A DNA stretch of 64,000 nucleotides, from assembly GCF_035594765.1 (NCBI RefSeq), contig NW_026943826.1, forward strand, positions 11,521,198-11,585,197, in the 5' to 3' direction. Below the pieces are notes generated by a model. The model was not told where the DNA came from. It saw only the letters and a program-made list of their open reading frames with translations, and ran no database searches. Below are positions 4,284-63,124 of this stretch, in pieces. Positions within the stretch are counted from its first letter, which is position 1, and every line of letters starts with the position of its first letter. The translations under genes were made by a program, and so were the position numbers. The stretch is from Anolis carolinensis (lineage: Eukaryota).

Positions 4284-7200
4284 ATGGTTCAATTGGGTAA
4301 GTGAGATTGATTATTAATTGCTCGATGTCATCTTAATGTTGCCAGCTAAGCAGGGACAGGCCTGGTTGGTCTTTGGATGGGAAGATCTGACCATGATATT
4401 TTAATATTTCCAAGGTTTTTTAATGGCAGGAATAGTTTGCCTTTCTTGCCATTTATATGTAAGGTAAACTATTATATTATTATTTTATTATATGTATTTA
4501 TTTCTGTATTATTATTATTTTACTTATTTATTTCTGTATTATTTCATTTATTTCTGCATTATTTATTTATTTCTATATTATTATTTTATTTTACTATTTT
4601 TTTATTTCTGTATTATTTTATTTTTATTTCTGTCTTACTATTTTATTTTAGTATTTATTTATTTCTGTATTATTTTATTTTTATTTCTGTCTTACTATTT
4701 TATTTTATTATTTATTTCTGTATTATTATTTTATTTCTGTATTTCTGTGATATTATTTCATTTATTTATTTCCGTCTTACTGTTTTATTTATTTATTTTG
4801 TATTATTTTTTATTTCTGCCTTGCCATTTTATTTATTTATTTTTGAATTATTATTTTATTTATTTATTTCTGTCTTACTATTTTGTTTTATTATTTTTTA
4901 TTTCTGTATTATTATTTTTTATTTCTGTATTATTATTTTATTTCATTATTTTATTTATTTCTGTATTTTTTATTTTTTATTTGCAACATTTATATTCCGC
5001 CCTTCTCACTCCGAATATATTGTACATACAATATATTATAGCATAATATAATATATTACTATATTGTACCATACCACTATACTGCAATATTATTAGTAAT
5101 ATTACATGTAATATATAATATACAATTATAATAGTGTATTATTATATTACATTATATTATTATCAACATTATATTTATATACAATATATATTAGCATAGC
5201 CCAATATAAACACTATATATAACTATATTGTACTATACCACAATATTATTAGTAACATTACATGTAAAATATAATATACAATTATAATAATGTATTATTA
5301 TAATACAATATGTATTATTAATGTTTTTAAGTATTGTATAATGTTTTTATTAAGCAATTTTTTATCCTGTATTTTTGTTTTAATTGATATATTGTATTAC
5401 TGTTTTATCTTTTTATAGTGTGATTTGTATTATGTTGTTTATGTTTTGTTCTATGTTGTTTGTATAATATACAATTATAATAGTTTATTATTATATTGTA
5501 TTACATTATAATATTATCAATATATGCATATACAATATATTATATTATTGGCATAGCACAATATAAACACTATATATATATACTAGCTGTGCCCGGCCAC
5601 GCGTTGCTGTGGCAAAGTGGTGGTGGTATTGGTTAAAAATTGTTGTGTAATTTTTATTTGACGTTATTTGTATTTTTAAATTATTTTTATTGTAAGTTAT
5701 CTTTTTATTTATTATATTTTATTATTTTCTTGTATTATTTTTAGTTATTTTCTGTTATTATAGTATTTTATTGTATTTATATTTTAGTGTTTTTAATTAT
5801 TTTTAGTGTTTTTTATTATTTTTTATTGGGTTGCTAGGAGACCAAGTGGACGGAGCTTAGCCTTCTAACTGGCAGCAATTGGATAAAAGCAATTATTCCT
5901 CTCCCTCTAATTAGGACTTTATTTTTCTTTTCTTTTTGTTGTATCAACCTAGAGGCGTGGATGAGGGGTTGTGTTGTCAAATTTCGAGGTTGGGGGGCCT
6001 GTAGTTTTGTTGTTTTGTGGGTCGCCGTGATGCCATCACTCTTTTATATATATAGATAACTATATTGTACTATACCACAATATTATGAGTAACATTACAT
6101 GTAAAATATAATATACAATTATAATAGTGTATTATTATTACAGTATTACTATATTGTATTACATTATATTAGGATAGCATAATATTAGTATTATATATTA
6201 TTATATTGTTATACTAGCTGTGCCCGGCCACGCGCTGCTGTGGCTTGTCTGGTGGTGTTGGTGAGAAATTGTTGAGGTAGTGGTGGTATTGAATGTCTGT
6301 TGTATGGTTGTCTTTATGTTTAGTATTCACACTGAAGTGGATTATATGGCAGTGTGGAGTCAAGATAATCCAGTTCAAAGCAGATTAATATAAGATTCTA
6401 AATGGGTTATATAGCTGTGTGGAAGGGCCTTGAGTCTACACTGCCATATAATCCAGTTAAAATCTGATAATCTGTGGAAGAGGCCTAAGTGAGGCCTAAG
6501 TCTTCCTGTCCCCTGGGCTGAGGAGGTTGCTAGGAGACCAAGTGGGCGGAGCTTAGCCTTCTAACTGGCAGCAATTGGATAAAAACTATTATTCCTCTCC
6601 CTGTAATTAGGACTTGATTTTTCTTTTCTTTTTGTTGTATCAACCTAGAGCCGTGAATTATGGGTTGTGGTGTCAAATTTCAAGGTTGGGGGGCCTGTAG
6701 TTTTGTTGTTTTGTCCGCTGCCCTGATGCCATCACTCTTTTATATATATAGACTAGCTGTGCCCGGCCACGCGTTGCTGTGGCAAAGTGGTGGCGATATT
6801 GGTTAAAAATTGTTGTGTAATTTTTATTTGACGTTATTTGCAATGTTTTTATTAATTTCATTGTAAATTATATTTTTATTTATTATATTTTATTATTTTC
6901 TTGTATTATTTTTTAGTTATTTTCTGTTATTATAGTATTTTCTTGTATTATTTTTTTAGTGTTTTTAATTGTTTTTTATTGGGTTGCTAGGAGACCAAGT
7001 TGGAGGAGCTTAGCCTTCTAACTGGCAGCAATTGGATAAAAGCAATTATTCCTCTCTCTCTAATTAGGACTTTATTTTTCTTTTCTTTTTGTTGTATCAA
7101 CCTAGAGGCGTGGATGATGGGTTGTGTTGTCAATTTTCGAGGTTGTGGGGTGTTTACTTTTGTTGTTTTGTCCGCTGCCGTGATGCCATCACTCTTTTAT

Positions 7201-8261
7201 ATATATAGATTGACACAGGAGACATATTGGAATGGTGTCTTCCTGGCATACTTTGATTTTATGTACAGAGAGAACATATCCGTGGTCTCGCTTGCAGGGC
7301 GGCCCCTCTTGAAGCAGTACTACAACCTCCACGTCGTCATCCGCTTTGCCCTCGGGGGCTGCGCCAACAGGCCGTACTATCGGATCGTTGCCGCGCACAA
7401 CAAGCGGGCCCGGGATGGCAAGTACTTGGAGCAGGTCGGCTGCTACGACCCGCTCCCCAATGACCACGGGGAGAAGATCGTGGGCTTGAACATCGAGCGG
7501 ATCAAATACTGGATCGCCAGCGGGGCCCTCCTCAGCAAACCTATGGAAAAACTTTTAGGTAATATGGTGTAAAGAACTTAGGTGGCAGAGGATGGAATCC
7601 CCTTTGAATCCCACCGCTGCCACCAATTAACGTGGAGACTTGATGTAGCAGGGAATGGAATCCCTTTAGAATCCCTCGGCTTTGCCACCAATATGTATAG
7701 AGGTGAGGTGTCTGACGGGAACGTGTGGCCGAGATGGAACCCTTTTGATCCCACACACGCACACACACAGATACCACCACTTAATGAAGATGTCTTATGA
7801 GAGATGATGTTAATTAATGATTTGTTTGATTATCTTCTTCGCTGCCACCAATGGAGAGACGTCAGGCAGATGGCACTGGTTCCTTTAAGCTTTCTCTATT
7901 TGTTTTACTTCAGATGTTGGTGTTGCTTAATTTAATATGAGAGTATGACAGAGGCTTGATTAGAATAAATAAATTGCAGGTACAGAGCTTGATGGTTTCA
8001 GATAACTTGGTAAAGGCACTTCGCTTAATGGTTACAAACGGTTATGAGGTGGTTAAACTTCTGTAATATTCTGTAATAATAATAATATAATTATTGGGTT
8101 GCTAAATGATAATAAGGTGTACATTTGGTTCCCTAGGGCTGTCTGGGTTCTTTCCTCTCCATCCCATGACCATCACAAATGCGGAAAGAGCGAAGAGGCG
8201 AAGAGCCCGGGAGGCCGAAAGGGCTGCTGCGGAGGAAGAGCCGGTTGCCATCAAAGAGTGA
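4284..8261 (+). CDS. MRPS16: Mitochondrial ribosomal protein S16 (bS16m), 132 aa, 3 exons
   Basis: Exons 4284-4296, 7298-7558, 8137-8261 (399 nt, GT-AG). [109 protein letters not shown]... matches S16. ATTAAA at 8447-8452. Confidence 0.96.
4344..4385 (+). pseudogene. 5S rRNA-derived fragment (SINE3-type head)
   Basis: agctaagcagggacaggcctggttggtctttggatggga resembles the 5S internal control region (box A to box C). Confidence 0.55.
4470..5000. repeat. T-rich low-complexity repeat
   Basis: Degenerate tttatttctgtattattatt units. Confidence 0.8.
5583..6056 (-). mobile_element. Non-autonomous Helitron
   Basis: Same termini as 1179-1717 in reverse (TC...gccacagcaacgcgtggccgggcacagCTAG), A|T target. 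Confidence 0.85.
6214..6752 (-). mobile_element. Non-autonomous Helitron (subfamily of 1179-1717)
   Basis: Near-identical reverse complement of 1179-1717. Confidence 0.85.
6753..7209 (-). mobile_element. Non-autonomous Helitron (subfamily of 5583-6056), abutting the previous copy
   Basis: TC/CTAG termini; CTAG joined directly to the TC of the 6214-6752 copy. Confidence 0.85.
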
Positions 8262-8571
8262 AACCCAAATGGACATTTGCAAAGAACTTTCCGTATCCGC
8301 TCAAAGGGCAGAAGTGCTGCAGGAGACTCAGTTCCCGGAGTTTGAAGAGTTGTAGTACTTTATTACAACGAGGATTTAAAACAGTTTGATTCTTCACTGG
8401 ACGGTTCTGTGTACATTTCTGCAGATTGTGAAATACTAAAAAGGATATTAAAAACGGGACACTTGAGATTATTTTTTTAAAGACTGCACTCATTTAAAGT
8501 TCCTTAAAAGTTCCTTAAAAGTTTGGGTGGGAGTTCGTGTTCTTTATGTTTCTATTTCAAATATTACTTTT

Positions 8572-9255
8572 ATCAGGTTGCTGTGAGTTTTCGGGGCTGT
8601 CTGGCCATGTTCCAGAAGTAAACACCTCCCGACATAGGATTCCCCCCCAGGCAGGAGGCAGCCAGGCTTTGAAACTGCAAATCCGGTGACCAGTATTTTA
8701 AAAAAAAAATTCTTAAAGCTTTTATCAGGTTGCTGTGAGTTTTCAGGGCTGTCTGGCCGTGTTCCAGAAATAAACACCTCCCGACATAGGATTCCCCCCC
8801 AGGCAGGAGGCAGCCAGGCTTTGAAACTGCAAATCCGGTGACCAGTATTTTTTTTAAAAAAAAATTCTAAAAGCTTTGATCAGGTTGCTGTGAGTTTTCG
8901 GGGCCGTCTGGCCATGTTCCAGAAGTAAACACCTCCCGACATAGGATTCCCCCCCCCCCCCAAACAAAAAATGCTGCCAGGAAATACAGGAAGCAGCCAG
9001 GCTTTGAAGCTGCAAGGCTATTCGATGCTAATCAAGCTGGCCAATGGCAACACTGCAAGACAAAGAGTTCTTTCTCCCAACCTGGAGATATATAAACTCC
9101 ACTTGCCTAGTTTCCAACAGACCTCACAACCTCTGAGGATGCCTGCCACAGATGTGGGCGAAACGTCAGGAGAGAATGCTTCTGGGACATGACCAGACAG
9201 TTCACAAAACTAACAGCAACGCAGTGATTCCGGCCATGAAAGCCTTCGACAAAAC
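8572..9255 (+). mobile_element. Penelope-like element remnant with inverted pseudo-LTR segment (5' part triplicated)
   Basis: gttgctgtgagttttcggggctgtctggccatgttccagaag (three copies, 8577-8930) is the reverse complement of the ~9180-9220 segment. Same family at 43935-44105 and 41985-42070. Carries a hammerhead core. Confidence 0.7.
9130..9170 (+). ncRNA. Minimal type I hammerhead ribozyme motif (Penelope-associated)
   Basis: CCU-CUGAGGA-U-GCCUGC(cacagau)GUGGGC-GAAAC-GUC-AGG: core boxes, 6-bp stem II, palindromic ACGU in place of stem III; predicted cleavage after C9167. Confidence 0.65.
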
Positions 9256-9548
9256 ACTGCTTTTTATCAATTCAGAAAAGCCATAATAATAATAATAATA
9301 ATAAATTTTAGTTCTGACCCAGAGTTAGAATATAAAAATATTAGATTATTAAAAGACATAGTTAAAATTAAAACATTAACATAATGCATATGAATCAAAT
9401 GGAAGTGTAAATTAGTCTAGCTGTGTTGCAATACTATTGCATCGAATGCATTCAGTTGTAAACTTTGGGCAAGTTTGGTCCGTAAACACATTCGAAAGTA
9501 TATGCTGATCCGGATTGGTTCTGGAATATTCCCAAACTGGTCTCCTTG

Positions 9549-12500
9549 TCATCGCTCGAGGAACACAACCCGGTTTTCCCGCCGGGATTTCTCTGCTTCG
9601 AATACGAGGAGGTGGGAACGCAAAGTATCTTCTGGACCGGTCTGGATCAGAGACGGGTTATTCTCCTGTGCAGAAAAATGTAAACAAAGGTTCAGAACCT
9701 ATGGAAGGCCAAGAGCCAGTCTTCCATGTAAGGATTGTTTACAAACACAAACAAGTAGCTTGCATTAATGCACGCACATTCGATATACACATTTCCTTAT
9801 ATGCTGGACCTTCCTTATGGTAAGTAGAGTCAACGGTGGGCGGAGCTAATCGTAAGTTGAGTCAATGGTGGGCGGAGCTAATTGTAAGTTGAGTCAACAG
9901 TAGGTGGAGCTAATCGTAAGTAAACGGGTGGAGCTAATGGTAAGTAGAGTCAACGGTGGGTGGTGCTAATTGTAAGTAGAGCCAACAGTGGGTAGAGCTA
10001 AAGGTAGGCAATGGTGGGTGGAGCTAATAGTAAGTAGAGTCAACGGTGGGTGGAGCTAATCGTAAGTTGAGTCAACGGTGGGTGGAGCTAATCGTAAGTA
10101 GAGTCAACGGTGGGTGGAGCTAATCGTAAGTTGAGTCAACGGTGGGTGGAGCTAATCGTAAGTAAATGGTGGGCGGAGCTAATGGTAAGTAGAGCCAACT
10201 GGGGGTGGAGCTAATCGTAAGTAGAGTCAACGGTGGGTGGAGCTAATGGTAAGTAGAGTCAACGGTGGGTGGAGCTAATGGTAAGTAGAGTCAACGGTGG
10301 GTGGAGCTAATGGTAAATAGAGTCAACGGTGGGTGGAGCTAATGGTAAGTCGAGTCAACGGTGGGTGGAGCTAATGGTAAATAGAGTCAACGGTGGGTGG
10401 AGCTAATGGTAAGTAGAGTCAACGGTGGGTGGAGCTAATGGTAAATAGTCAACGGTGGGTGGAGCTAATGGTAAGTAGAGTCAACGGTGGGTGGAGCTAA
10501 TGGTAAATAGTCAACGGTGGGTGGAGCTAATGGTAAGTAGAGTCAACGGTGGGTGGAGCTAATGGTAAATAGTCAACGGTGGGTGGAGCTAATGGTAAGT
10601 AGAGTCAACGGTGGGTGGAGCTAATTGTAAGTTGAGTCAACGGTGGGTGGAGCTAATCGTAAGTAAACGGTGGGTGGAGCTAATGGTAAGTACAGCCAAC
10701 TGGGGGTGGAGCTAATCATAAGTAGAGTCAACAGTGGGTGGAGCTAATGGCATGTAGAGTCAACGGTGGGTGGAGCTAATCGTAAGTAAACGGTGGGTGG
10801 AGCTAATGGTAAGTACAGCCAACTGGGGGTGGAGCTAATCATAAGTAGAGTCAACAGTGGGTGGAGCTAATGGTATGTAGAGTCAACGGTGGGTGGAGCT
10901 AATCGTAAGTAAACGGTGGGCGGAGCTAATGGTAAGTACAGCCAACTGGGGGTGGAGCTAATCGTAAGTAGAGTCAACAGTGGGTGGAGCTAATGGCATG
11001 TAGAGTCAACGGTGGGTGGAGCTAATGGTAAGTACAGTCAATGATGGGTGGAGCTAATCGTAAGTAGAGTCAACGGTGGGTGGAGCTAATAGTAAACAGA
11101 GCCAATGGTGAGTGGAACTAATGATAAGCAGAGCCAACAGTGGGTGGAGCTAACAGATAGAGCCAGTGGTGGGTGGAGCTAATGATAGGTAGAGCCAATG
11201 GTGTGTGACGACAACAGTGGGCGGAGCCAGACTGCACTGTAATGCTCCTGTCTATACACCATGAGAAATACATTTATTTAGAACTAACGGTGTGAATCAA
11301 TTAATCCCAAGTATAGTAGAGCCAATGGAAATAATTTAACACTGGTTGAAAACCTAAAGCAAAGGAGCAAAGCTGTCTTCTGGCTTCCTCACTTCGTTGG
11401 GAACCCAACTGCCACTTGAGCTCCGCCTCTGGCTCAAAAGGCTTCTACAGGAAACACACAATCACTCACTTAACTGCTAACCTAAACTAAAGAGAATTAA
11501 AGGCGAAAAGGTTGGGGAAACGTACAGCTACCGCCGAAACGAAGCTCTCTATCAAGTAGAAGTCGGCACCATCGTGGGCACTCAAACTCGCCGGGACGGA
11601 GGAGACTTTCTCTGGGAAAAAGGTGGTTTTCTCCTTCTCCAGGAAACGGAAGACTTCCACGGGCCCGCCGCCTTCGCAGTGGAGCTCTCCCTGAAAAAGA
11701 TAAACAGCTTCGCTCTCACAGAGCCTTCTCTCACACCGAACGTACACAGGAGCTTCACACACAGCAGCCTTCACACTGGAGCTTCACACATGAGGCCGGC
11801 TCATACTGAGGCCTCTCTCACACTGAGGCGGAGCCAATGGTGGGTGGAGCTAACGGTAGATGGAACTAATGGGTGGAGCTAACAGGTGGCGCCAATGGTG
11901 GGTGGAGCTAAATGTAAGCAGAGCCAACGGTGGGTGGAGTTAATGGTAGGTGGAACTAATAAGTGGAGCTAACAGATGGAGCCAACGGTGGGTGGAGCTA
12001 ATAGTAAACAGAGCCAACGATGGGTGGAGCAAATGGTAGGAGGAGCCAATGGTGGGTGGAGCTAATGGTAGGCGGAACTAATAAGTGGAGCTAACAGAGG
12101 AGCCAATGGTGGGTGGAGCTAATGGTAGGCGGAATTAATAAGTGGAGCTAACAGATGGAGCCAATGGTGGGTGGAGCTAATGGTGGGTGGAGCTAATGGT
12201 AGTTGGAGCCAACGGTGGGTGGAGTTAATGGTAGACAGAGCCAACGTTGGGTGGAGCTAATGGTAGGCGGAATTAATAAATGGAGCTAACAGATGGAGCC
12301 AATGGTGGGTGGAGCTAATGGTAGTTGAAGCCAATGGTGGGTGGAGTTAATGGTAGATGGAGCCAACGTTGGGTGGAGCTAATGGTAGACGGCATTAGTA
12401 CGTGGAGCTAACAGATGGAGCCAATGGTGGGTGGAGCTAATGGTGGGTGAAGCTAATGGTAGTTGGAGCCAACGGTGGGTGGAGTTAATGGTAGACAGAG

Positions 12501-14861
12501 CCAACGTTGGGTGGAGCTAATGGTAGGCGGAATTAATAAATGGAGCTAACAGATGGAGCCAATGGTGGGTGGAGCTACATGGTAGTTGGAGCCAATGGTG
12601 GGTGGAGTTAATGGTAGATGGAGCCAACGTTGGGTGGAGCTAATGGTAGATGGCATTAGTAAGTGGAGCTAACAGATGGAGCCAATGGTGGGTGGAGCTA
12701 ATGGTAGTTGGAGCCAACGGTGGGTGGAGCTAATGGTAGGCAAAGCCAATGGTGGGTGGAGCCAATGGCAGTTGGAGCCAACGGTATGTGATGACAACAG
12801 TGGGCGGAGCCAGGCTGCACTTTAATTCCACTGTCTATACACCATGAGAAATATATTTACTTAGAACTAACAGTGTGAATAAATTAATTAATCCCAAGTA
12901 TAGTCGATCCAATGGAAATAATTTACTTTCGTCCCATAGATGGTGGTTTTCCGCAGGCCCAGTTTCTCGGTGAAGGCCACCATGGTGAAGCCAACCGTGG
13001 CTCCTCCTTCAAACTCCATGTTGACCACCTGGAAAGATTTATTATTATTATTATTATTATTATTTTAAAGATGATACAATCTAACATCTTATTTTAAATA
13101 GACAGACATGAAATCGTACCTGGTTGGTGACGACGTCGTTGTCGCACTCGTAGACGCACCTCCCGTAAGGACCGCGGCGCAAGGCGTCCGTCAGGGATTC
13201 GATGTCGTAGGTGCCGTCACTGCAAACGACGGACACCGGCCAATCAAAGTAGCCCTAGAAAGCCGGCCAATGAGTCAGGGAGCGCGTCTACACGGCTGAA
13301 ATAATGCAGATTGGTCCCGCTATGGGATCCTTGGAGTTGTAGTTTGGCGAGACCTTGCAAAACTATAAGTCCCACCTTTTTGGCGGGCTCCAGGTAGACC
13401 TTCTGAGCAGAATACGGACAGGTTGGCTCCACCAAACAATCCCAACACCGGCTGGAGGCTCCTTTGGGCTGAAATAATAATACCGTATATACTCGAGTAT
13501 AAGCCGACCCAAATATAAGCTGAGGCATCTAATTTTACCACAAAAAAAAAACTGGCAAATCATTGACTCAAGTATAAGCCGAGAGTGGTAAAAATACATA
13601 CCAAAAAATTACATTAAATGAGGCATCCGTGAAATAATAGAGTGAAATAATAAATGTATTAATAATAATAAAAATAGAGTAAAATAAATGTAATAGTAGC
13701 AACAATAATAGAGTACAATAATAAATGCAATAACAATAGAGTAAAATAATAAAGGTAATAATACCAATAATAATAGAGTAAAATAATACATGTAATAATA
13801 ATAATAATAAATACAGGAAAATAATACATGTAATAATAAATAGAGTAGAACAATAAACGTAATAATAATAATATCAGAGTGAAATAATAAATGTATTAAT
13901 AATAATAAAAATAGAGTAAAATAAATGTAATAGTAGCAACAATAATAGAGTACAATAATAAATGCAATAACAATAGAGTAAAATAATAAAGGTAATAATA
14001 CCAATAATAATAGAGTAAAATAATACATGTAATAATAATAATAATAAATACAGGAAAATAATACATGTAATAATAAATAGAGTAGAACAATAAACGTAAT
14101 AATAATAATATCAGAGTGAAATAATAAATGTATTAATAATAATAAAAATAGAGTAAAATAAATGTAATAGTAGCAACAATAATAGAGTACAATAATAAAT
14201 GCAATAACAATAGAGTAAAATAATAAATGTAATAATACCAATAATAATAGAGTAAAATAATACATGTAATAATAATAATAATAAATACAGGAAAATAATA
14301 CATGTAATAATAAATAGAGTAGAACAATAAACGTAATAATAATAATATCAGAGTGAAATAATAAATGTATTAATAATAATAAAAATAGAGTAAAATAAAT
14401 GTAATAGTAGCAACAATAATAGAGTACAATAATAAATGCAATAACAATAGAGTAAAATAATAAATGTAATAATACCAATAATAATAGAGTAAAATAATAC
14501 ATGTAATAATAATAATAATTAATACAGGAAAATAATACGTGTAATAATAAATAGAGTAGAACAATAAATGTAATAATAATAATATCAGAGTGAAATAATA
14601 AATGTATTAATAATAATAAAAATAGAGTAAAATAAATGTAATAGTAGCAACAATAATAGAGTACAACAATAATAGAGAAAAATAATAAATGTAATAATAT
14701 CAATAATAATAGAGAAAAATAATAAATGTACCATATATTCTGGAGTATAAGCTGATCCAAATATAAGCCAACCAGGACCCTCACCCGAGTATAAGTCGAG
14801 GGGGGCTTTTTTAGTCCTAAAAAAAGGGCTGAAAAACTAGGCTTATACTGGAATATATACA

Positions 14862-14906
<45 letters not shown>

Positions 14907-14942
14907 TTGAAATAGGTAAAGCTTCCATTTGTTAACATTTTA

Positions 14943-14990
<48 letters not shown>

Positions 14991-17377
14991 GGTATTGTTT
15001 ACATTTTAGAATACTTTAGAATAGCCAGCAATGAAAGGACCAAAGTAGAGACATCTCCGGCCCATATCAGCCAGCATGACAATGAATTAAATCAAGAAAC
15101 CACTTCCTAAGATCTGTAGAGATACTCGCAGGAACACCTCAGCAAGCAAGAGTCCAAAAGTGGCAGGCTAAAACCCGGAACAATTTGGGCCAGATGGGCC
15201 TAGGAGAGGAAAATCCAACCAACCTGGTGCCCTTTTGTGAAATGGGAGACATTCCCAAAAGAGGACACTTTCAAACATCTGGAAGAAAAGACAGGGAGGA
15301 AAGGGAGTTGTAGTCACTTTGCTCTACAGTCCAGGGCAGTACCTATTGATCTACTCATACTCTGGGGGTTGGTGCTCATCTCCATTTCTAAGCCGAAGAG
15401 CCGGCATTGTCCGTAGACACCTCCAAGGTCATGACTGCATGGAGCGCCAATGTTACCATCCCGCCGCAGCAGTACCTATTGATCTACTCGCATTGGCATG
15501 TTTTCGAACTGCTAGTTTGGCAGAAGCTGGGGCCAACAGCGGGCGCTCCCCCCGCTCCTCCGATTCGAACCTGCGACCTTTCGGTCCGCCCTGCCTTGTG
15601 TTTACCTTTTGCCGCCCATCCAGAAATTGATGAGGTCGAGGTCGTGGCACGACTTGGCCAGCAAGGAGAAGGAGCTCTCCGCTTCGTTGCGCCAGTTCCC
15701 GCGCACAAAAGAGTGCGCAAAATGCCAGAATCCCACCTGGATAGAAAAGGACGTGTTGTCGAAGGCTTGCTGTTGACCTAAGCAGCCCGAAAGACAGTTG
15801 CATCTGTCGAGTAGGAAATTTAGGTACCGCTTGTAATGAAGTACGAATTTTTGGTTTACAAATGTTATGTTTAATTGTGTGTTTGTGTTTTAAACGGGTA
15901 AGTATTACAGTTGTTGCCTCTCAGCACTCAGAGGCTGGTTGCCATGGAGAAGTAGGCGGAGTCAACTGCCGTTTTGTTGAAGAAGTGCAGAGTTTAAAAA
16001 AGGGATTCAGTCTGTGCTCCGATGAGGCACAAGGAAGACTGATCCTAGGTTGAGGGGATCAATTGTTCACTTTTGAGTCAGTTTAAAATAAGTTTGGTGA
16101 CTTATTTAATGTAGTCTGTGTCCCGGTAAGGAACAGAGAATCTGTGATCGTATATCACAGGGGGGACTGCGGTTTAAAAGTAGCAGAGAAAGAAGTTCTA
16201 ACTACTTTAAGTAAAAAAAGTGTCACTTCCTAATGGGTCCTATTAATGGCATTTTTGGTCACGAACCCGTTCCAAATGCTGAATGTGGCAGATGTCTCCG
16301 ATGAGCCCCGAATCCAGTAGCTCCTAAGCGGGGAATCAAAACAAGAACATAGATTGTAAAAATTTACTGCAAAATTGCAATGGTTTTCTACAGCTTATCA
16401 AATGCACAAAGTACTGTATATACTCTTTTCCCCGTAATAGGCAGTAAGACCACCTAAAGCTTCTGCTCGACCATTTCAAAGCTCTTCTGCTTGGGCGGTG
16501 ATTACGCTATCGTCGGCATAAATATTTTTGAAAAGCACAGGTTGTTATTGCCATTAATACTAGATGTCGTACCTTGATTTTCAGGACAACCGGGTGGTAG
16601 CGCAGGACGTGGCACACGGCAAGGATGGCGTGTCCGCTTTGACACGCCTGGACGATTTCTTTACAGTCCTCTGGGGTGGTCTGCGAAGAGGAAACAAGGT
16701 AAAACATATCAACAAAATTATTATTTTAAGTATTTTATGTGTTTTGGCAATGTCGTGACCCACCTAGAAGTTCGTCCGAGATTTTCCGTTTTTCCTCCAC
16801 CACGGACACCCCGGTGTTCCCGCCTACACCCAGACTGCACTATGAACCCATACATTATTAATGCTAGCAATATCTAAAAATGAATTTAGAATTATGCATA
16901 AATACTAATAAAATAATACAATGATAATGATATAATAACAATGCATTAAAATACATACGTACATTATTAAATGACCCGGGCAATGCTAGTAATAATAATA
17001 AAATAATAATTATAGTAATATTATTATTAATAATAGTAATCCCTTATTTTTTCAAATGACTTGGGAAACACCGGGTAGCCAAGCTAGTAATAATAATAAA
17101 TGATAATAATAATAATAATAATGATAATAATAATAATAACAATCCCTTACTTTTTCAAATGATCTGGGAAACACCGGGTACCCAAGCTAGTAATAATAAT
17201 AAATGGTAACAATAATAATAAATGATAATAATAATAGTAATAATAATAATAATAATCCCTTACTTTCTCAAATGACCTGGGAAACACAAGGTACCCAAGC
17301 TAGTAATAATAATAAATGATAATAGTAATAATAATAATAAACAAATGATAATAATAATAATAGTAAAATAATACATG

Positions 17378-22640: not shown

Positions 22641-23187
22641 AAATGCATTCAATATATATATATAGATTGCTAGCTGTGCCTGGCCACGTGTTGCGGTGGC
22701 AAAGTGTATTGATATAAAGTATTGAGGAATTGGTGGTAGTTAGTATGTTATTTCCTGTATTTTTTAGGCAGTATGGAAGAACTGTGGCATGAAGGGGGTG
22801 GGGCCTAAAGGGGGCGGGGCCTACCCTTCTGACTGGCAGCCTGGGGGAGAACGGCTCTTCCTCGTTTTCTTTAAATTGGATTGAATTCTTCTAGGGTTTT
22901 TTTTATTGAAAGACACAGATTGGATGACTATCTCTTTTGTGGCCAAATTTGGTGTGATTTGGTCCAGTAGTTTTGTTGTTTACTCCGTGGGAAAAACACA
23001 CACTGGTGCAATATGTTACAAAATTATGATCGTTGTGAGATTTGCTTTGACAAGAGAGAGACACACACACTCCAAGGCGGCCATCTTTTTATTGTCATTA
23101 CGGTATGAAGAGTTGCCCCGTCTACGGCTAACCGCCTTCCTCCCAGTGTCTCTGGCCCAACGGCGGGATTCGCACCCAGCTCCGGCC

Positions 23188-32585
<9,398 letters not shown>

Positions 32586-32639
32586 GGCGGAGTGGCCTGC
32601 GAGGGGGACACCACTGCTTAGCCATCATACATGAACATG

Positions 32640-33340
32640 TGTCACTTGGGGAACAAGAAACATATGAGCGAGGGGAGGTCGCTCATGCCAGGAAGATCCT
32701 ACTCTCAGTCCCACCACCTTCAGAAGCACAATGGGTGGGAACGAGAGATAGGACCTTCTCAGTGGTGGCACCTTGGTTGTGGAACTCCCTCCCTAATGAT
32801 ACCAGTTTGAGCCCATCATGTATACTCAGGGCGCTTGGAGAACAAGATATGAGCGAGGGGAGTTCGCCCATGCTGGGGAGATCCTACTCTCAGTCCCACC
32901 ACCTTCAGAAGCACGACTGGTGGGAAAGAGAGAGAGGGCCTTCTGGGTGTTGGTGCCTTTATTGTGGAACTCCCTTCCCAGTGATACCAGTTCGAGCACT
33001 AACTTGACCACAATAAAGTTCTTAAGAACTTCCATTGTGTATATTCAGAGCGCTCAGGGAACAAGAAACATATGAGCGAGGGGAGGTTCTGCTCTCAGTC
33101 CCACCACCTTCAGAAGCACGGCTGGTAAGAACGAGAGACAGGACCTTCTTGATGGTGGTGCCTTCATTGTGGAACTCCCTTCCCAGTGATACCAGTTCGA
33201 GCGCTAACTTGGCCACGGTTAAGTTCTTAAGAATTTGCATAGTGTATACTCAGGGTGCTCGGGGAACAAGAAACATATGAGCGAGGGGAGCTCACTCTTG
33301 CTGGTGAGATCCTACTCTCAGTCCGACCAACTTCAGAAGC
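32640..33340 (+). mobile_element. Tandemly duplicated L2 LINE 3' fragment
   Basis: Translates to RTFSVVAPWLWNSLP / RAFWVLVPLLWNSLP, the L2 ORF2 C-terminal motif; about 4 copies. Confidence 0.6.
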
Positions 33341-35990: not shown

Positions 35991-36287
35991 ATGTGGCCAG
36001 CATGACTGCATGGAGTGCCATTACTTCCCCGCCGGAGCAGTACCTATTCATCTACTCACATTTGCATGTTTTCGAACGACTAAGTTGGCAGAAGCTGGGG
36101 CTAACAACAGGAACTCACCCCACTCGCCGGATTCGAACCGCCGACCTTTTGGACAGCAAGTTCAGCTGCTCAGCAGGTCAGGGTTTCGACAATGCGCTGA
36201 ATGCGCGGCTGCTTTTGCGCCGAAGTCCTAATAGGATTAACTTCCAATAGCTTTGCTGGAGTTGTATGTGGAATCGCGGACTACGGG

Positions 36288-36723
36288 ATGGCAGCAGGCG
36301 CGGATATCGTCACCCTCGTCTTGGGCGCTTTGGGACTGGCGCTGCTCGTCCTCTCCGCCGGGTCTGATTGCTGGAGGGTAAGGCCCGGGGGCGATGGGAG
36401 TTGGAGTTGGAAAAAGTTCCAATTCAACCACGGGATGAATTGGAACTGGGGGGGATCCGGTTGCCAAGCGGCGGAATCCGCACTCGGCGGCATTTCTTGT
36501 GTTTCGGGAGAGAAAAGGTCAGCCTTGCTTCTCGGAGACCTCCGACTGTGTTGTCGAAGGTTTACTAATCTGGAAAAGAAGCCGTTCTTTGCATTTCCCA
36601 ATATATAGAAGTCATTCATTTCTATAGGGTTCGCTATTTAAACACGGGTTTGCGTATCCGCGGATACTGCAGACTTGCAGGCTTCTATATCCGCGGTATT
36701 GCATTCAAGAACGTACGATGCTC

Positions 36724-36776
<53 letters not shown>

Positions 36777-37650
36777 TGCCAATCGAAAAGTCAGCAGTTT
36801 GGGCCCGGGTCGGGGTGAGCACCCGCTGTTAGCCCCAGCTCCCTGCCGATCTAGCAGAAATGTGAGTAGGTAAATAGGTACAGCTTGTTGCGAGGAGGTA
36901 ATAAAGGCGCCCTTACAAGCATCAATCATTGATACGGCTAAGGATGATAAAGCAAGTCAGCAGTTTGAGTCTAGGTCGGGGTGAGCATCCTCTGTTAGCC
37001 CCAGCTCCCTGCCCATCTAGCAGAAATGTGAGTAGGTAAATAGGTACTGCTTTTAGAGGGGAGGTAATAAAGGTGCACTTAAGAGCATCGATCATGGGGA
37101 CGGCTAAGGACGATAAAGCAAGTCAGCAGTTTGAGCCCGAGTTGGGGTGAGCACCCGCTGTTAGCCCCAGCTCCCTGCCCATCTAGCAGAAATGTGAGTA
37201 GGTAAATAGGTACAGTTTTTAGTGAGGAGGTAATAAAGGTGCCCTTACAAGCATCGATCATGGGGACGGCTAAGGACGATAAAGCAAGTCAGCAGTTTGA
37301 GCCCAGGTCGGGGTGAGCACCCGTTGTTAGCCCCAGCTCCCTGCCTATCTAGCAGAAATGTGAGTAGGTAAACAGGTACTGCTTGTTGCGAGGAGATAAT
37401 AAAGGCGCCCTTATGAGCATCGATTACGGGGACGGCTAAGGACAATAAAGCTCCTTGGCACGGAAGATGGAGCGAGGCCAGAGTCGAGCACAGTCTCCAA
37501 GGTGCCGGAAATAAGACGGGAAAGCCTTTACCTCTGTTTGTGTATTGTCTGTCCTTCTTAATTGTATAATAGCATTGAACATTTGTTGTGTGTCTTCTGG
37601 AATCCGCCCTGAGTCCTCTCAAGGAGACAGAGCGGAATATAAATAAAGTA

Positions 37651-37690
<40 letters not shown>

Positions 37691-39365
37691 TGGGACTATT
37701 GATGTCATATCGAGATAGTTCCTCCTGCAACTTTCAAGGCCCGTTTGTGCGGAATCCTTGCACGTCTTGACCCTTCTTTCCTCCAGCAAGATGCCAAGGA
37801 TCCCCTCTCGTCGGTGGGACTGAGTGTCCGGTGCCGCGGCTTGTGGAGCGAGTGCGTCTTCGACAACGTGGCCGACCTCTGGACCTGCGACATTCCCATT
37901 TCCTATCTCGGCGAGCATCCTGGTAAGAGGCAGAAAAACCCATCCCGACAGAAGGGACCCGATTGTGACGGTGGGCAGTTAAGGTCCACTAGCTATGTCC
38001 GGCCACGTGTTGCTGTGGCTTATGGGAATGCTTTGTTGGCCAGGTGGAGTAGCAGTGAAGAGATTGCCTACCCTTCTGACCAGCAACCAGGATTGAAAAC
38101 GGCTCTTCCTCGTTCTCTAATTTGCCCGTTATTTTCCAGGTTTTTTGTTTGAAAGACATAGATGGGATGACGATGTCTTTTGTGGCCAAATTTGGTGTGA
38201 TTGGGTTCAGTGGTTTTGTTGTTTACTCGGTCCTACAAACGTACATGACATTTTTATATAGATAGATAGATTCCAGGGGTACATCTAAGTCCCGAGTCCC
38301 TTCGGGGAGACAGGTAAAGTTTATCAGAGTGAGTTAAACCACTAAACAACAGAAAATCCTGCCAAGAGAAAGGTTGGTAGTTCAAGCCCAGGTCGAGCTT
38401 GAACTCCCTGCTCACCTAGCAAATCGAAAACAGAAATGTGAGTAGATAAATAGGTACCGCTTTAAGCAGGGAGGTAATAAAAGGCACTCATAAGGACACG
38501 TCAGAGGATGTCCAAGGACGACAAAGCTCCTCGGCATGGAAGAATACAACAACAGCAGCTCCCCATGGCCAAATCGAGCACAGCCGGATGCCGGAGATGA
38601 AAAAAGGGAAGCCTTGCCTCTGTTTATGTACTGTCTGTCTCTGTCAATTTTTTCTCTTTTTCCCTATGGAGTGTGATTCTCTTCTCTCTTTCCAGGCGTC
38701 CTTGTGGTCACCCGGGTCTTGGTGATCCTCTCCGGCTTGATGACTTTTTCTGCTATGCCCACGTTCATTGCCGGGATGGGTTGCACCAAGCTTTTCCACG
38801 ACAACGTTCCTCTGAAACATCAGTTTTCTCTTGCAGCTGCGACTCTATTTCTCCTGGGAGGTAAGAAGAAAGGCGGCCGGGACATTGTGTTGTTGCAAGC
38901 GATTGATGGGGACTCAAAATGGCAATAAAGTCCAAAAACTCTACTGAGCATAATGCATCAATTTCTGAAAACCACAATGTAGGGTTCGCTTCTCTTTAAT
39001 AGGTCTTTCCGGAGCGGTCGCAGTTTTTTGGTACGCTGTCGACACCGTCCAGAAGTACAAACTGGAGGTAGGTCGAACTTCAAACAAGAGTTCAGATATC
39101 TAGAATATCCCCGCAATTGCGAGATATCCTCGCAATTCAGCAATTGGGTTTCGTCATGCCTCGATAGTGAAGGATTCGTAAAGTTGCGTGTCTTTCCCAT
39201 TTCTGGAAAAGCCGAGAATCTATGAACATGAGTATCATTTTTGTATGTGATCTTTTATGACTTGTTTTTTATTGTTGATTGACTTGTTTTATTGCTTTGT
39301 TTTTATATTGTTGATGTCCAGGCTTGGCCCCATGTAAGCCGCCCCGAGTCCCTTTGGGTATAAAA

Positions 39366-39422
<57 letters not shown>

Positions 39423-40098
39423 CAGACTTCCCCAAAGATATGAGCCATAGACCCAAGATCCATACAGTAACGCATTGTGGCCCTCAAGTAAACAATCTCT
39501 TAATTTAAGGAAAGCCATGAAGCCGTTATTTCGATGATTTCTCACTCGCTGGTTTCTCACAAATTCTCTGCGACCTCCGTAACCTGACTCTCTCCTCCCG
39601 GAGACCGAGTCTCCAAATTCTAGTAACTCTTCTACTAACTTCTTGCGTGTTCCTAGGGGAAAGATCTCTCCCTTCCAGCTCCTTATCTGGTGTTGCTAAG
39701 GCACGACTAGGAGAAAGGTCCTCTTTATCATCTGATGCCACAGCATCTCTCTTTCTGCTCTGCCTTTCAGTAGGCACAAACCGTTCTCTAAAGCAGAATC
39801 TTGATCTAAAATCTCCTCCTTTCTCTCACTGTATTACCCATCAGTCCTCACAACCTCTGATAACACAATCCCCTCGTCTTCAGCCTCTGGCGGAACTACA
39901 ACATCCGTTCTCTTCCAGGTCAGCTTGGGCATCCCTGGCGTGACTTATGAGCTCGGCTATTCCTTCTGGGTGGCGGCCGCCGGGGTGGCGAGTGCCATGT
40001 CCAGTGGCCTTTTGTTGGTGGTTGCCAACTGTCTTCGAACCCAGAATCCAAGGAAGAAGGAGCCGGTCCATGAACGAAGGCTGGGAACCTACCTGTGA
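36288..40098 (+). CDS. Divergent claudin-16-family tight-junction protein, 211 aa, 5 exons
   Basis: Exons 36288-36377, 37787-37922, 38696-38860, 39003-39067, 39919-40098 (636 nt, GT-AG, no internal stops). Claudin W-GLW-C-C signature with CLDN16-type DCW..CRGLWSEC..TCD..LGEHP, then VVTR, WYAVD, YELGYSFW; four hydrophobic segments; C-terminal PDZ-type GTYL. ATTAAA at 40130-40135. Confidence 0.88.
36780..37655 (+). mobile_element. Sauria SINE with tandemly repeated 5' part and (TTA)n tail
   Basis: gtcagcagtttgagcccaggtcggggtgagcacccgctgttagccccagctccctgcc x4, then 3' body. Confidence 0.65.
37989..38268 (-). mobile_element. Short non-autonomous Helitron
   Basis: ctagctatgtccggccacgtgttgctgtggc ... 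tttttatatagataga termini; related remnant at 22670-23000. Confidence 0.7.
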
Positions 40099-40214
40099 TG
40101 CTTTCTTCAGACTCTTTCTCTCACCTCTTATTAAACCAGGGTCATTCCGATGCGCCTTTTGCCTCCAGTGAGTTGCTTTTCCCATCTATTTGCATTGCTC
40201 ATTATAAATACATA

Positions 40215-41821: not shown

Positions 41822-44800
41822 TCACACTCGGGATGCGACCGCATACATCTTGGAGTGGACGGTCCGTGGATGATAGACGGTGCGCTGGAACCTTCTGGAA
41901 GGGGCGGCATCACCTTTGGGAAGGAGAAATAGAGAATCGATGTTCCCAAAGCTCTGCGATGCTCAGGGCGCATTCCCTACACTGGCTTCCCTGACCATGT
42001 TCCAGAAGCATTCTCTCCTGACGTTTCGCCCACATCTCAGCCTGGGGAATCCTTTGTTGGGAGGTGTTACCTGACCAACAAAGGATTCCCCCAGTGTCAT
42101 CTCCAGATACAGAGCAAGCCCTGACAAAGAACAGATGCCAGCCATAAGACGGGCCAGCCATAAAACCTCAATTGCCCTCTGGTATGTGAGAGACCCTATA
42201 TAAATGGGATACAGAGAAGATTCTGGTATTCTGTACAATGATGATGTCATGATCTCCGATCTTTGACATCTCCGGACACAGAGCAAGTGCTGACAAAGAA
42301 CAGATGCCAGCCATAAAATGGGCCAGCCATAAAACCTCAATTACTCTCTGGTATGTGAGAGCCCCTATATAAATGGGCTACAGAGAAGATTCTGGTATTC
42401 TGTACAATAATGATGTCATGATCTCCGATCTTTGACATCTCTGGACACAGAGCAAGTGCTGACAAAGAACAGATGCCAGACATAAAACGGGCCAGCCATA
42501 AAACCTCAATTACCCCCGGTATGTGAGAGCCCCTATATAAATGGGCTACAGAGAAGATTCTGGTATTCTGTACAATGATGATGTCATGATCTCTGATCTT
42601 TGACATCTCTGGACACAGAGCAAGTGCTGACAAAGAACAGATGCCAGACATAAAACGGGCCAGCCATAAAACCTCAATTACCCCTGGTATGTGAGAGCCC
42701 CTATATAAATGGGCTACAGAGAAGATTCTGGTATTCTGTACAATAATGATGTCATGATCTCCGATCTTTGACATCTCCGGACACAGACCAAGTGCTGACA
42801 AAGAACAGATGCCAGCCATAAAACCTCAATTACCCTCTGGTATGTGAGAGCCCCTATATAAATGGGCTACAGAGAAGATTCTGGTATTCTGTACAATAAA
42901 AACCTGTTGGAATCTACCAGCGTGTGTCTTGGTGCTTTCTTCTAGTGGAAGACTTACCCACAGCACAACTGGAAGAAGAGAATCTAACACCCAGGCAGGA
43001 CGTGACCTACTCTCCCCATGTTTTGGAGAGATTCGCACACCCGCTGATTTTTGGTGAATTTTTAAATAAATCTTCCAAAAAGTATTTTTATAAGAAAACT
43101 ACAAAGCCCATTGTGGCTTAAATAGGACGTCTTACCACTGACCTTTGACGGCATAAAGGCAGCAGGTCAGCGCAATGGAGGCCACCAAACAGCCCACGGA
43201 CCCGGCCATGCCCATCCAGCAAGACCAGCCAAAGTCGTGGTAGATGCCCAGAAACACGCTGTGGAGCAACAAGGTGGACCTCTCCATGTAGACGTCGACG
43301 GCATACCAGATGGAACCCACCAGTCCAAAGATGCCTGAAAGGAGAGCAATTCGGAAAAAAAAAAGAGAGAGAGAGAATAACAGAATTATTATATTTATTT
43401 ATAATACAAATTTATGGTGGAAAGTCTTGCGCTGTTCAATAGATTATCAGTGGAAGGTACTACCTGTTGGAGGGTGTAAATGTAAATAAATAGAAGCTTT
43501 ACCACTGTTTCTGAACCAAAATACACCCTGCGGTATAATAATGTAACTTTACTTCAGTTCAAAAGCTCAAACAGAGCAACAATATATACAGCAGTCTCTC
43601 TGAATTCTGTTTCCAGTCAGCACTCTCTTCACTCTCCGAGGTGAAAGTGGCAGTTAAAACCATTTCTCCCAGTAGCAAGCTAGAGACAGTAGCCAATCAG
43701 AATTCTGGCTCTTGGCATGCTCAGCCAATCAGCTGCCACTGTTTTTGAATCAAAATATACTCTGCAGTATAATAATGTGTCACTCGGGTTTGTGTAACAA
43801 ATAACAGTAACTTTACTTCCGTTCAAAAGGTCAAGCAGAGCAACAATATATACAGCAGTCTTTCTGAATTCTTACAGAAAACAGATGGAATAAACAGTCC
43901 TTTTATACAGTCTTTAAAATATGCTTTAAAATAACGCTGGCTTCCAACTGACACACTCTCCACAGATACATATTTACCTTCCTTGCCTAGTTTCTCCATG
44001 CCTCACAACCTCTGAGGATGCCTGCCATAGATGTGGGCGAAACGTCAGGAGAGAATACTTCTGGAACATGGCCAGACAGCCGGAAAGACATACAACAACC
44101 ATGCTTCGTTTGCCTTAGAAATAATTAGTCTTCAAAGAGTTGACAGCCATTTCCTGCCTGGCTGTTTCCAGTCAGCACTCTCTTCACTCTCCGAGGTGAT
44201 AGTGGCAGTTAAAACTGTTTCTCTCAGAAACTGGAAACAGCCATTTCCTGCCTGGCTGTTTCCAGTCAGCACTCTCTTCACTGTCTGAGGTGAAAGTGGC
44301 AGTTAAAACTGTTTCTCTCAGAAACTGGAAACAGCCATTTCCTGCCTGGCTGTTTCCAGTCAGCACTCTCTTCACTCTCCGAGGTGAAAGTGGCAGTTAA
44401 AACTGTTTCTCTCAGAAGCAAGCTAGAGACAGTAGCCAATCAGAATTCTGGCTCCTGGCATGCTCAGCCAATCAGCTGCCGACACATGCCTTTCTAGTCA
44501 ACCCATCATATCGTGGTGCCTTTTACAAATCCCTGCACTACTTACTTCCAACTCCGAGAACGAAGCCGGAGGAGTAGCACATCTTCAGCTTGATCTGTGG
44601 CTCGTCCTTGAGGAACTTGACACAGTCGAGGCCCGACACCAGCAGCACCAGCGCAAAGACCGAGAGGATGTCGGCCGTGATGAGCAACGCGCGGGTCACC
44701 ACGATTTTCACTGCGGGAAGAGAGCGGAGGGCAAAGGAGAGGCGGACTACGGTTGAGCTCTAAACTGCATCTGGGAGTTCCACTGGGGTCAAAACCACAT

Positions 44801-46230
44801 TTATCCGTACAGTATAGACGCCCCATCCTTTGGTGACTTACTGGGGTGTTCGGCTAAAATGGAGTCGTACTGGTCGCAGGTCCGGATGCCGTCCTGCATG
44901 TTCGTGACACACTCTCGCCAAAGCCCCCGGCATTTGTGACTCACCTGGGAAGGAAAGGAAAGAGATAAATACTGTAAATAAGTAAATAAGTCATCTCCAG
45001 AACATTTGCTGTTGACTTGGTTGCCACCATCAGAGCTTGGTTGCGGTTGACGTGATTGACTTGGTTGCCACCATCAAAACTAAGTTGCTCTTGTCTTGGT
45101 TGACTTTGTTGCCACCATCAGAACTTGGTTGTGGTTGACTTGGTTGACTTGGTTGCCATCATCAGAACTTGGTTTCTGTTGACTTGGTTGACTTGGTTGC
45201 CACCATCAGAGCTTCATTGCTCTTGTCTTGGTTGACTTGGTTGCCACCATCAGAAGTTGGTTGGTCTTGACTTGGTTGGCACCATCAGAGCTTGGTTGTT
45301 CTTGTCTTGGTTGCCACCATCAGAACCTGGTTGCTCTTGACTTTGTTGCCACCATCAGAACTTGGTTGTTCTTGTCTTGGTTGACTTGGTTGCCACCATC
45401 AGAACCTGGTTGCTCTTGACTTTGTTGCCAACATCAGAACTTGGTTGTTCTTGTCTTGGTTGACTTGGTTGCCACCATCAGAACCTGGTTGCTCTTGACT
45501 TTGTTGCCACCATCAGAACTTGGTTGTTCTTGTCTTGGTTGACTTGGTTGCCACCATCAGAACTTGGTTGCTCTTGACTTTGTTGCCACCATCAGAACTT
45601 GGTTGTTCTTGTCTTGGTTGACTTGGTTGCCACCATCAGAACCTGGTTGCTCTTGACTTTGTTGCCACCATCAGAACTTGGTTGTTCTTGTCTTGGTTGA
45701 CTTGGTTGCCACCATCAGAACCTGGTTGCTCTTGACTTGGTTGCCACCATCAGAACTTGGTTGTTCTTGACTTTGTTGACTTGGCTGCCACCATCAGAAC
45801 TTGGTTGTTCTTGTCTTGGTTGACTTGGCTGCCACCATCAGAACTTGGTTGTTCTTGACTTTGTTGACTTGGCTGCCACCATCAGAACTTGGTTGTTCTT
45901 GTCTTGGTTGACTTGGCTGCCACCATCAGAACTTGGTTGCTCTTGACTTTGTTGACTTGGTTGCCACCATCAGAACTTGGTTGTTCTTGACTTCATTGAC
46001 TTGGCTGCCACCATCAGAACTTGGTTGCTCTTGACTTTGTTGACTTGGTTGCCACCATCAGAACTTGGTTGCTAGAAACCAATAGGATCCTGGTCCTGAC
46101 CAATGTCATGGCTCACCTCTAAGCTGTCATCAGCGTTGACCATCCAGCAGTCGGTCCAGGTTGCTGCCACCAGGAAGAGGGTCGAGATGAAGGCCACGCA
46201 GAAGGAGGCCAGCTGCAGGACCACCGCCAT
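41822..46230 (-). CDS. Claudin-16-like (paracellin-like), 221 aa, 5 exons; probably a paralog rather than the CLDN16 ortholog
   Basis: Exons 46230-46117, 44944-44842, 44710-44546, 43334-43143, 41913-41822 (666 nt). [50 protein letters not shown]...[12 protein letters not shown]...[21 protein letters not shown]...[12 protein letters not shown]...KMYAVASRV closely follows CLDN16. Symbol withheld because the neighbours are CLDN19/P3H1, not CLDN1/P3H2. Confidence 0.92.
42100..42900. repeat. ~168-bp tandem repeat
   Basis: 56-aa periodicity in ORF track; intron 4 of the claudin-16-like gene. Confidence 0.9.
44009..44049 (+). ncRNA. Minimal type I hammerhead ribozyme motif in Penelope fragment 43935-44105
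   Basis: CCU-CUGAGGA-U-GCCUGC(cauagau)GUGGGC-GAAAC-GUC-AGG; differs from 9130-9170 only in loop II. Confidence 0.65.
45008..46072. repeat. ~30-40-bp minisatellite
   Basis: (ttgacttggttgccaccatcagaacttggttgttc)n. Confidence 0.95.
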
Positions 46231-62947: not shown

Positions 62948-63079
62948 CTAGAGTTCGTCTTTCCCCAACGCGGTGGGGCTCTTCCCGGGGTCTTCGGGGC
63001 CCGGGGTCCGCTCTGGGGGCAGCTCCGTCTCCGCCGTGTGGAACAGCATCCGCACCAAGTCGTCCGCCTGGACCCTCTC
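62948..63079 (-). CDS. P3H1: Terminal coding exon of prolyl 3-hydroxylase 1 (leprecan); rest of gene beyond right edge
   Basis: Acceptor ctgcAG then ERVQADDLVRMLFHTAETELPPERTPGPEDPGKSPTALGKDEL*. RVQADDLV.MLF and the ER-retention KDEL match P3H1; same orientation upstream of CLDN19. AATAAA (-) at 62756-62751. Confidence 0.88.
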   Translation of the reverse strand, partial: ERVQADDLVRMLFHTAETELPPERTPGPEDPGKSPTALGKDEL

Positions 63080-63124
63080 CTGCAGCGGGTTCAAAAGGCG
63101 GAGAGGCATTTCAGGTTATGTATT

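Follow-up and report, generated by a model that had tools for sequence, protein, structure and literature searches.

Several claudins that line paracellular pores have been described at the level of single residues. D55 is the main filter residue of claudin-15, D65 is named for claudin-2 and E46 is a minor determinant, according to the passages of PMC6028499 that we cite. For CLDN16 (paracellin-1), five functional acids are given in an excerpt of PMC3867513, i.e. D104, D105, E119, D126 and E140, and D97 is required for junction localisation as stated in an excerpt of PMC6609605. Here we analyse a stretch of 64,000 nucleotides (nt) of Anolis carolinensis (contig NW_026943826.1, positions 11,521,198 to 11,585,197; called the window, with positions counted from its first letter) and a claudin gene in it, claudin X, which had drawn attention in a sequence-only reading. 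Our data indicate that X belongs to a known family, within which it is ancient and undescribed, and that it is wrongly named in the databases and has an overlooked sister; its fold and likely function are conventional.

Gene structure, fold and conservation of claudin X

The five small exons of X (Table 1) splice, at the positions proposed by the sequence-only reading, to an open frame of 211 amino acids (aa). All introns have GT..AG ends, in phases 0, 1, 1 and 0. The product is identical to XP_008122678.1 (P0004), a RefSeq protein of Anolis carolinensis named 'claudin-16'. We checked the splicing in contigs from four public sequencing runs of four studies, runs that we guess to be RNA and that carry no tissue label. 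Three of the four proposed junctions were seen joined, namely 37922/38696 (two runs), 38860/39003 (two runs) and 39067/39919 (three runs). These joins come from three studies and all fall at the predicted GT..AG bases, and a single 603-base contig spans exons 2 to 5. Since exon 5 has one copy in our search of the anole genome, the joins do not derive from a retrocopy and are best read as spliced RNA. For the first junction, 36377/37787, the evidence consists of the GT..AG pair, the RefSeq model and the orthologous proteins that run through it, the run contigs having no cover of exon 1 or of this junction.

Contigs of three of the four runs have T for C at window position 37805, which changes Leu37 to Phe at a position variable among the orthologues. 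Two other models of the gene are in the databases. The UniRef model P0191 (304 aa) has 93 extra residues, drawn from two reading frames of repeat-derived-looking DNA at 36010-36287, and this extension is likely to be an annotation artefact. The second RefSeq isoform, P0192 (184 aa), lacks the fourth transmembrane helix (TM4).

X matches the Pfam domain PF00822 with 49.7 bits vs a cut-off of 26.7, and its first extracellular segment (ECS1) has the claudin signature W29, L49, W50, C53 and C64, with R82 atop TM2. Its structure model, built on a 134-row alignment, has a predicted local distance difference test score (pLDDT) of 90.3 and a predicted template modelling score of 0.85. Four helices and five strands (30-33, 43-47, 52-56, 61-65 and 161-164) appear in it; model, fold search and hydropathy all give four transmembrane helices, with the strands forming an extracellular sheet. 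The top Foldseek matches are claudin-3, -15, -4 and -19 (claudin-15: template modelling score 0.76, root-mean-square deviation 2.4). The ten best fold matches and all 10 matches among PDB sequences are claudins, and structures of transmembrane AMPA receptor regulatory proteins (TARPs) come after them. No member of the four-cysteine group to which X belongs (see below) was found among the PDB sequences, and the protein atlas gave generic claudin clusters only.

The identity of 42 orthologues to anole X is 84% in ECS1, 79% in the second extracellular segment (ECS2), 38-61% in the helices and 20% in the tail, and it rises to 94% over the last three residues. Judged from these sequences, the junction-facing loops and the PDZ end are under strong purifying selection. 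The end is Thr, Tyr and Leu/Ile/Val, each in 42 of 43 proteins. The sequence-only reading had suggested that the PDZ partners may differ, which the T-Y-L tail does not support: T-Y-L belongs to the class I PDZ motifs, as T/S-R-V does, and its Tyr is that of the usual claudin Y-V end.

X, its paralogue Y and the four-cysteine group

A search with the ECS1 exon of CLDN16b, the neighbour of X in the window, led to a second CLDN16-type gene on contig C3 of the anole, 54 kb from a CLDN1-type gene and on the opposite strand. We take the latter to be CLDN1, and the human CLDN1 and CLDN16 to be arranged head to head. The position beside CLDN1 is hence occupied by an anole gene other than X. The protein of X is 26% identical to this true anole CLDN16, 27% to CLDN16b and 22% to CLDN19, and the true CLDN16 and CLDN16b are 60% identical to each other. 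The name 'claudin-16' of XP_008122678.1 is wrong; the true CLDN16 lies on another chromosome beside CLDN1.

The tree was computed from 51 of 73 rows under LG+G4, the 22 dropped rows being 3 X, 2 Y (a paralogue described below), 2 CLDN16b-type, 1 CLDN16 and 14 other claudins. X forms a clade (support 97/99) outside that of CLDN16 and CLDN16b (100/99), and all of these fall together with Y in a four-cysteine clade (100/99). The approximately unbiased (AU) test rejects a grouping of X with CLDN16 (p 0.000115) and with CLDN16b (p 5.7e-05), so that X as CLDN16 itself is ruled out by tree and tests, and no one-to-one orthology to a named claudin was found in spite of the RefSeq name. That X is plain anole CLDN16, a recent diverged copy or a pseudogene is hardly credible: the database name speaks for this view, and the low identity to the gene on C3, both AU rejections, the intact X orthologues from chimaera to lizards and the spliced contigs speak against it. 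One shark protein groups with CLDN16 and proteins of chimaera and shark group inside X, and therefore X and CLDN16 had already separated when cartilaginous and bony fishes diverged. The proposal of an ancient uncharacterised claudin subfamily is thereby borne out, X having its own clade from chimaera to lizards with both extracellular loops strongly conserved. Two two-cysteine claudins, P0063 and P0067, are sister to the entire four-cysteine group (92/96) and may serve to root it.

A search of the anole genome with exon 2 of X gave a second match on contig C39, the paralogue Y. All four introns of Y lie at the alignment positions and phases of those of X, including two that are absent from CLDN16 and CLDN19. 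Of the five anole genes compared, X and Y alone have the fourth one (phase 0, in ECS2). The sequence-only reading had correctly placed intron 1 of X earlier than that of the neighbour and intron 4 in ECS2, but the structure is not unique, as Y has the same one. Exon lengths are 114, 103, 165 and 192 nt in CLDN16 and CLDN16b vs 90, 136, 165 and 65 nt in X, which does not follow the CLDN16 pattern. The 165-nt exon, with a phase-1 intron on either side, was found where that reading had put it, in X and the neighbour alike; as a sign of kinship it fails, because anole CLDN19 also carries this exon, which is a general feature of these claudins.

The 43 database matches of Y come from lizards, turtles, amphibians, lungfish, sturgeon and paddlefish; sharks, teleosts and crocodilians are not represented in them. 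Y has no Pfam match at E 0.05, so that Pfam-based counts of claudins would overlook it. In many species (e.g. Eublepharis, Microcaecilia, Xenopus and Acipenser) the contigs given for X and Y have equal lengths, which suggests that both lie on a single chromosome and arose by an old local duplication. The sister grouping of X and Y has a support of 89/83 but its alternatives are not rejected (AU p 0.35 and 0.39), and the only argument in its favour is the two shared introns. We rejected the idea that Y is a whole-genome-duplication copy beside CLDN7, as it sits amid DNAJC11, Kelch-BTB, BTB-zinc-finger, ankyrin, death-domain and RhoGEF genes. Neither the 60 kb round the CLDN7-like gene nor the 130 kb round CLDN1/CLDN16 gave further X- or Y-type exons in profile searches. 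Contig C39 also holds a Ty3/gypsy-type retrotransposon (L015:265-5052, minus strand) with one 1596-aa open frame that has gag, protease, reverse transcriptase, RNase H and integrase domains.

The four-cysteine CLDN16 group is four anole genes, i.e. CLDN16, CLDN16b, X and Y, and not one. The ECS1 of X has four Cys and eight acidic residues and that of CLDN16b four and nine, against two Cys in CLDN19, just as had been counted before. Cys stands at both position 28 and position 46 in 43 of 45 X rows (the other two are incomplete there), in 23 of 25 Y rows, in 13/13 rows of CLDN16/CLDN16b and in 0/51 rows of other claudins, so the extra pair is present in 79 of 83 rows of the group. In the model of X, C28 is at the start of strand 1 and C46 at the end of strand 2, and a second disulfide between them is plausible.

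The profile search with X scored 7997 candidates and gave 74 proteins at E <=1e-20, of which we judged 69 to be X and 5 to be Y or CLDN16b. The named sources of X are lizards, turtles, crocodilians, frogs, salamanders, caecilians, lungfish, bichir, sturgeon, bowfin, teleosts, sharks and chimaera, to which further searches added gar and more teleosts. No named row from mammals, birds or snakes is among these proteins, a result that covers annotated proteins only and does not imply gene loss. We also searched the 50% representatives exhaustively, and X was the best fit for 15 of the 148 new proteins in the matches listed (150 of 306); none of the 11 named ones is from a mammal, bird or snake, and the sequences of the remaining 4 resemble those of frogs or teleosts. 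The recovery of CLDN16b-type proteins from birds and marsupials serves as a partial control. That the sequence-only reading recognised no mammalian counterpart agrees with both searches of the database proteins.

Putative pore residues and the possible functions of X

We predict from the sequence features, and consider it somewhat probable, that X is a tight-junction claudin lining a cation-preferring paracellular pore. D56 and D65 are Asp in all 45 X rows. D56 aligns with D55 of claudin-15, and D65, which follows the second signature Cys, is presumably at the D65 position of claudin-2. The mean net charge of ECS1, counted by alignment columns, is -2.9 in X (44 of 45 rows; range -5 to -1), -4.5 in CLDN16/CLDN16b (13/13), +1.6 in Y (25/25) and -0.7 in other claudins (51/51). 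Within one lizard, the four-cysteine genes have ECS1 charges of -9, -5, -4 and +1. D27 of X, the counterpart of CLDN16 D97, is conserved in 43 of 43 proteins.

If this prediction holds, X would polymerise into strands, alone or with another claudin, and ZO-type PDZ scaffolds would hold it through T-Y-L. A C28-C46 bond would exist besides the usual C53-C64 bond. D56 and D65 would draw cations by a filter like that of claudin-15 and claudin-2, rather than by the five-acid string of CLDN16. Y, with the same two aspartates plus adjacent lysines, would be tighter or less cation-selective. That X works in an ion-transporting epithelium such as the kidney is a guess.

Several observations weigh against a cation pore in X. 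Only 2 to 3 of the five functional acids of CLDN16 are present in X, depending on gap placement: D104 is replaced by Lys (45/45), D105 is gap-dependent, E119 is Glu, D126 is Ala and E140 is a variable acid. The sequence-only reading had raised a different selectivity as a possibility, and the acid pattern of X does differ from that of CLDN16. Three basic residues, K34, R45 and R47, do not vary among the X rows, and the last of them (Arg in 45/45) takes the place of the pore-lining E46 of claudin-15. Y has the D56/D65 pair in a net basic loop, and hence the pair alone may not set the selectivity; net charge is in any case a poor predictor of claudin selectivity. The extra Cys pair arose once, so its co-occurrence counts as a single event. 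Finally, an earlier model of X from a family-only alignment had pLDDT <50 over ECS1, and a confident model required other claudins in the alignment.

X could instead be a sealing (barrier) claudin, or an anion-blocking or structural subunit, whose conserved loops serve strand assembly and not a cation filter. The invariant K34, R45 and R47, the two CLDN16 acids lost or reversed, the basic loop of the sister Y, and the hydrophobic residues of ECS1 and ECS2, which are no less conserved than the charged ones, would all fit. We nevertheless hold this to be unlikely, though a serious contender, since the two known pore positions both hold an invariant Asp, all X rows counted have a net acidic loop, and in the barrier claudins claudin-4 and claudin-19 the second Cys is followed by Lys. 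It is rather doubtful that X is an obligate heteromer partner, in the manner of CLDN16 and CLDN19, which takes up renal Mg2+/Ca2+ with the neighbouring CLDN19 or CLDN16b, either in place of CLDN16 or in addition to it. Their linkage is explicable by an old duplication, and the anole already has CLDN16 and CLDN16b. Of the seven TM3/TM4 interface loci that PMC4666130 maps for CLDN16, X agrees with the anole CLDN16 at none, a weak test as the neighbour agrees at only 2 of 7. A complex prediction for X and anole CLDN19 scored 0.01 and is void, the CLDN19 chain used (P0180) being without TM4 and the alignment unused.

A non-junctional claudin-fold protein, e.g. a channel auxiliary subunit like the TARPs, is very improbable. 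Extra ECS1 cysteines are known in TARP-like proteins, TARP structures do appear in the fold search, and Y is divergent enough to miss Pfam; yet claudins rank before them throughout, X nests among claudins, and it has the introns flanking the 165-nt exon of CLDN19 and a Tyr-hydrophobic PDZ end. More broadly, we speculate, as a long shot, that early jawed vertebrates had a four-cysteine toolkit of which placentals keep CLDN16 only, that X and Y form an oppositely charged pore pair, and that X is the missing CLDN19 partner for paracellular Mg2+/Ca2+ or Na+ in the kidney or other ion-exchanging epithelia of fish, amphibians and reptiles. If so, mammals, birds and snakes would each have lost X separately, and these losses would be signs of a changed renal physiology.

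We found no description of the X subfamily in the open-access literature; claudin phylogenies beyond it (Baltzegar 2013, the 2016 lamprey study and a round goby claudin tree) may already show the clade. In that open-access literature the term 'claudin-16-like' occurs in one paper, on eel larvae, as a table row with the paralogue unspecified (PMC8227761). Claudin biology rests on the mammalian set, and outside mammals 'claudin-16' and 'claudin-16-like' stand for four long-separated genes, so papers reporting 'cldn16' may mean different proteins. For the fish kidney, where the partner of CLDN19 is unknown, X is a concrete candidate that can be cloned. The four genes of one lizard are a natural charge series on one scaffold, useful for studying selectivity and the role of the extra Cys pair.

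Neighbouring genes and comparison with described claudins

Table 1. Exons of claudin X, its paralogue and the genes around it (window positions unless a contig is given)
Feature	Position	Strand	Remarks
Claudin X exon 1	36288..36377	+	90 nt; start codon, TM1, D27-C28-W29-R30; intron 1 phase 0
Claudin X exon 2	37787..37922	+	136 nt; remaining ECS1: C46, G48-L49-W50, E52, C53, D56, C64, D65
Claudin X exon 3	38696..38860	+	165 nt; TM2, inner loop and the beginning of TM3
Claudin X exon 4	39003..39067	+	65 nt; remainder of TM3, beginning of ECS2; intron 4 phase 0
Claudin X exon 5	39919..40098	+	180 nt; ECS2 strand 5, TM4, tail with T-Y-L end, stop
Likely poly(A) signal ATTAAA of X	40130..40135	+	spliced contigs stop at 40150-40155
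CLDN16b (neighbour of X)	41822..46230	-	five exons, CLDN16 intron pattern, 221 aa
CLDN19	53392..56624	-	four exons, 209 aa, two-Cys ECS1
SLC45A1-like transporter gene	about 23000-32700	-	no Pfam match on single exons tried
Oxidoreductase-like gene	about 7000-16900	-	no Pfam match on single exons tried
Prolyl 3-hydroxylase (leprecan) gene, last exon	62951-63115, also loci L034-L035	-	Pfam; K-D-E-L end
Paralogue Y	G000:C39:66294-72343, loci L007-L008	+	210 aa; P0267, database name 'claudin-16-like'

The names of the SLC45A1-like and oxidoreductase-like genes are our assumptions from their translations, and we take the leprecan gene to be P3H1. From left to right the window has the SLC45A1-like gene, X, CLDN16b, CLDN19 and the leprecan gene. 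This order presumably mirrors the arrangement P3H2-CLDN1-CLDN16, and CLDN16b would therefore be a genome-duplication copy of CLDN16; it is distinct from CLDN16 itself, a second gene of the CLDN16 type that lies beside CLDN19, and likely such a copy. Relatives of CLDN16b occur in turtles, crocodilians, birds and marsupials; that of the marsupials has a long branch of unsure placement.

X can be compared with three kinds of claudins. It shares with claudin-15 (PDB 4p79) and claudin-2 the fold and the Asp at the D55 site and after the second conserved Cys. It differs from them by an identity of about 22%, Arg at the E46 site, two extra Cys and a lineage of its own. In common with CLDN16 and CLDN16b, it has the D-C-W and C-R-G-L-W motifs, four Cys in an acidic ECS1, Asp after the last Cys, a class I PDZ end and five exons. 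Unlike them, it has introns 1 and 4 elsewhere, an ECS1 three residues longer and a T-Y-L tail, and it is not beside CLDN1. Compared with CLDN16 in particular, X has Lys for D104, Ala for D126 and a new Asp at 56, and a mammalian X protein was not found in our searches. Y shares the 90-nt exon 1, the 65-nt exon 4, the four Cys, D56, D65 and the T-Y-hydrophobic end of X, but it is only 29% identical, its ECS1 is net basic (+1 to +3) and its tail is T-Y-V.

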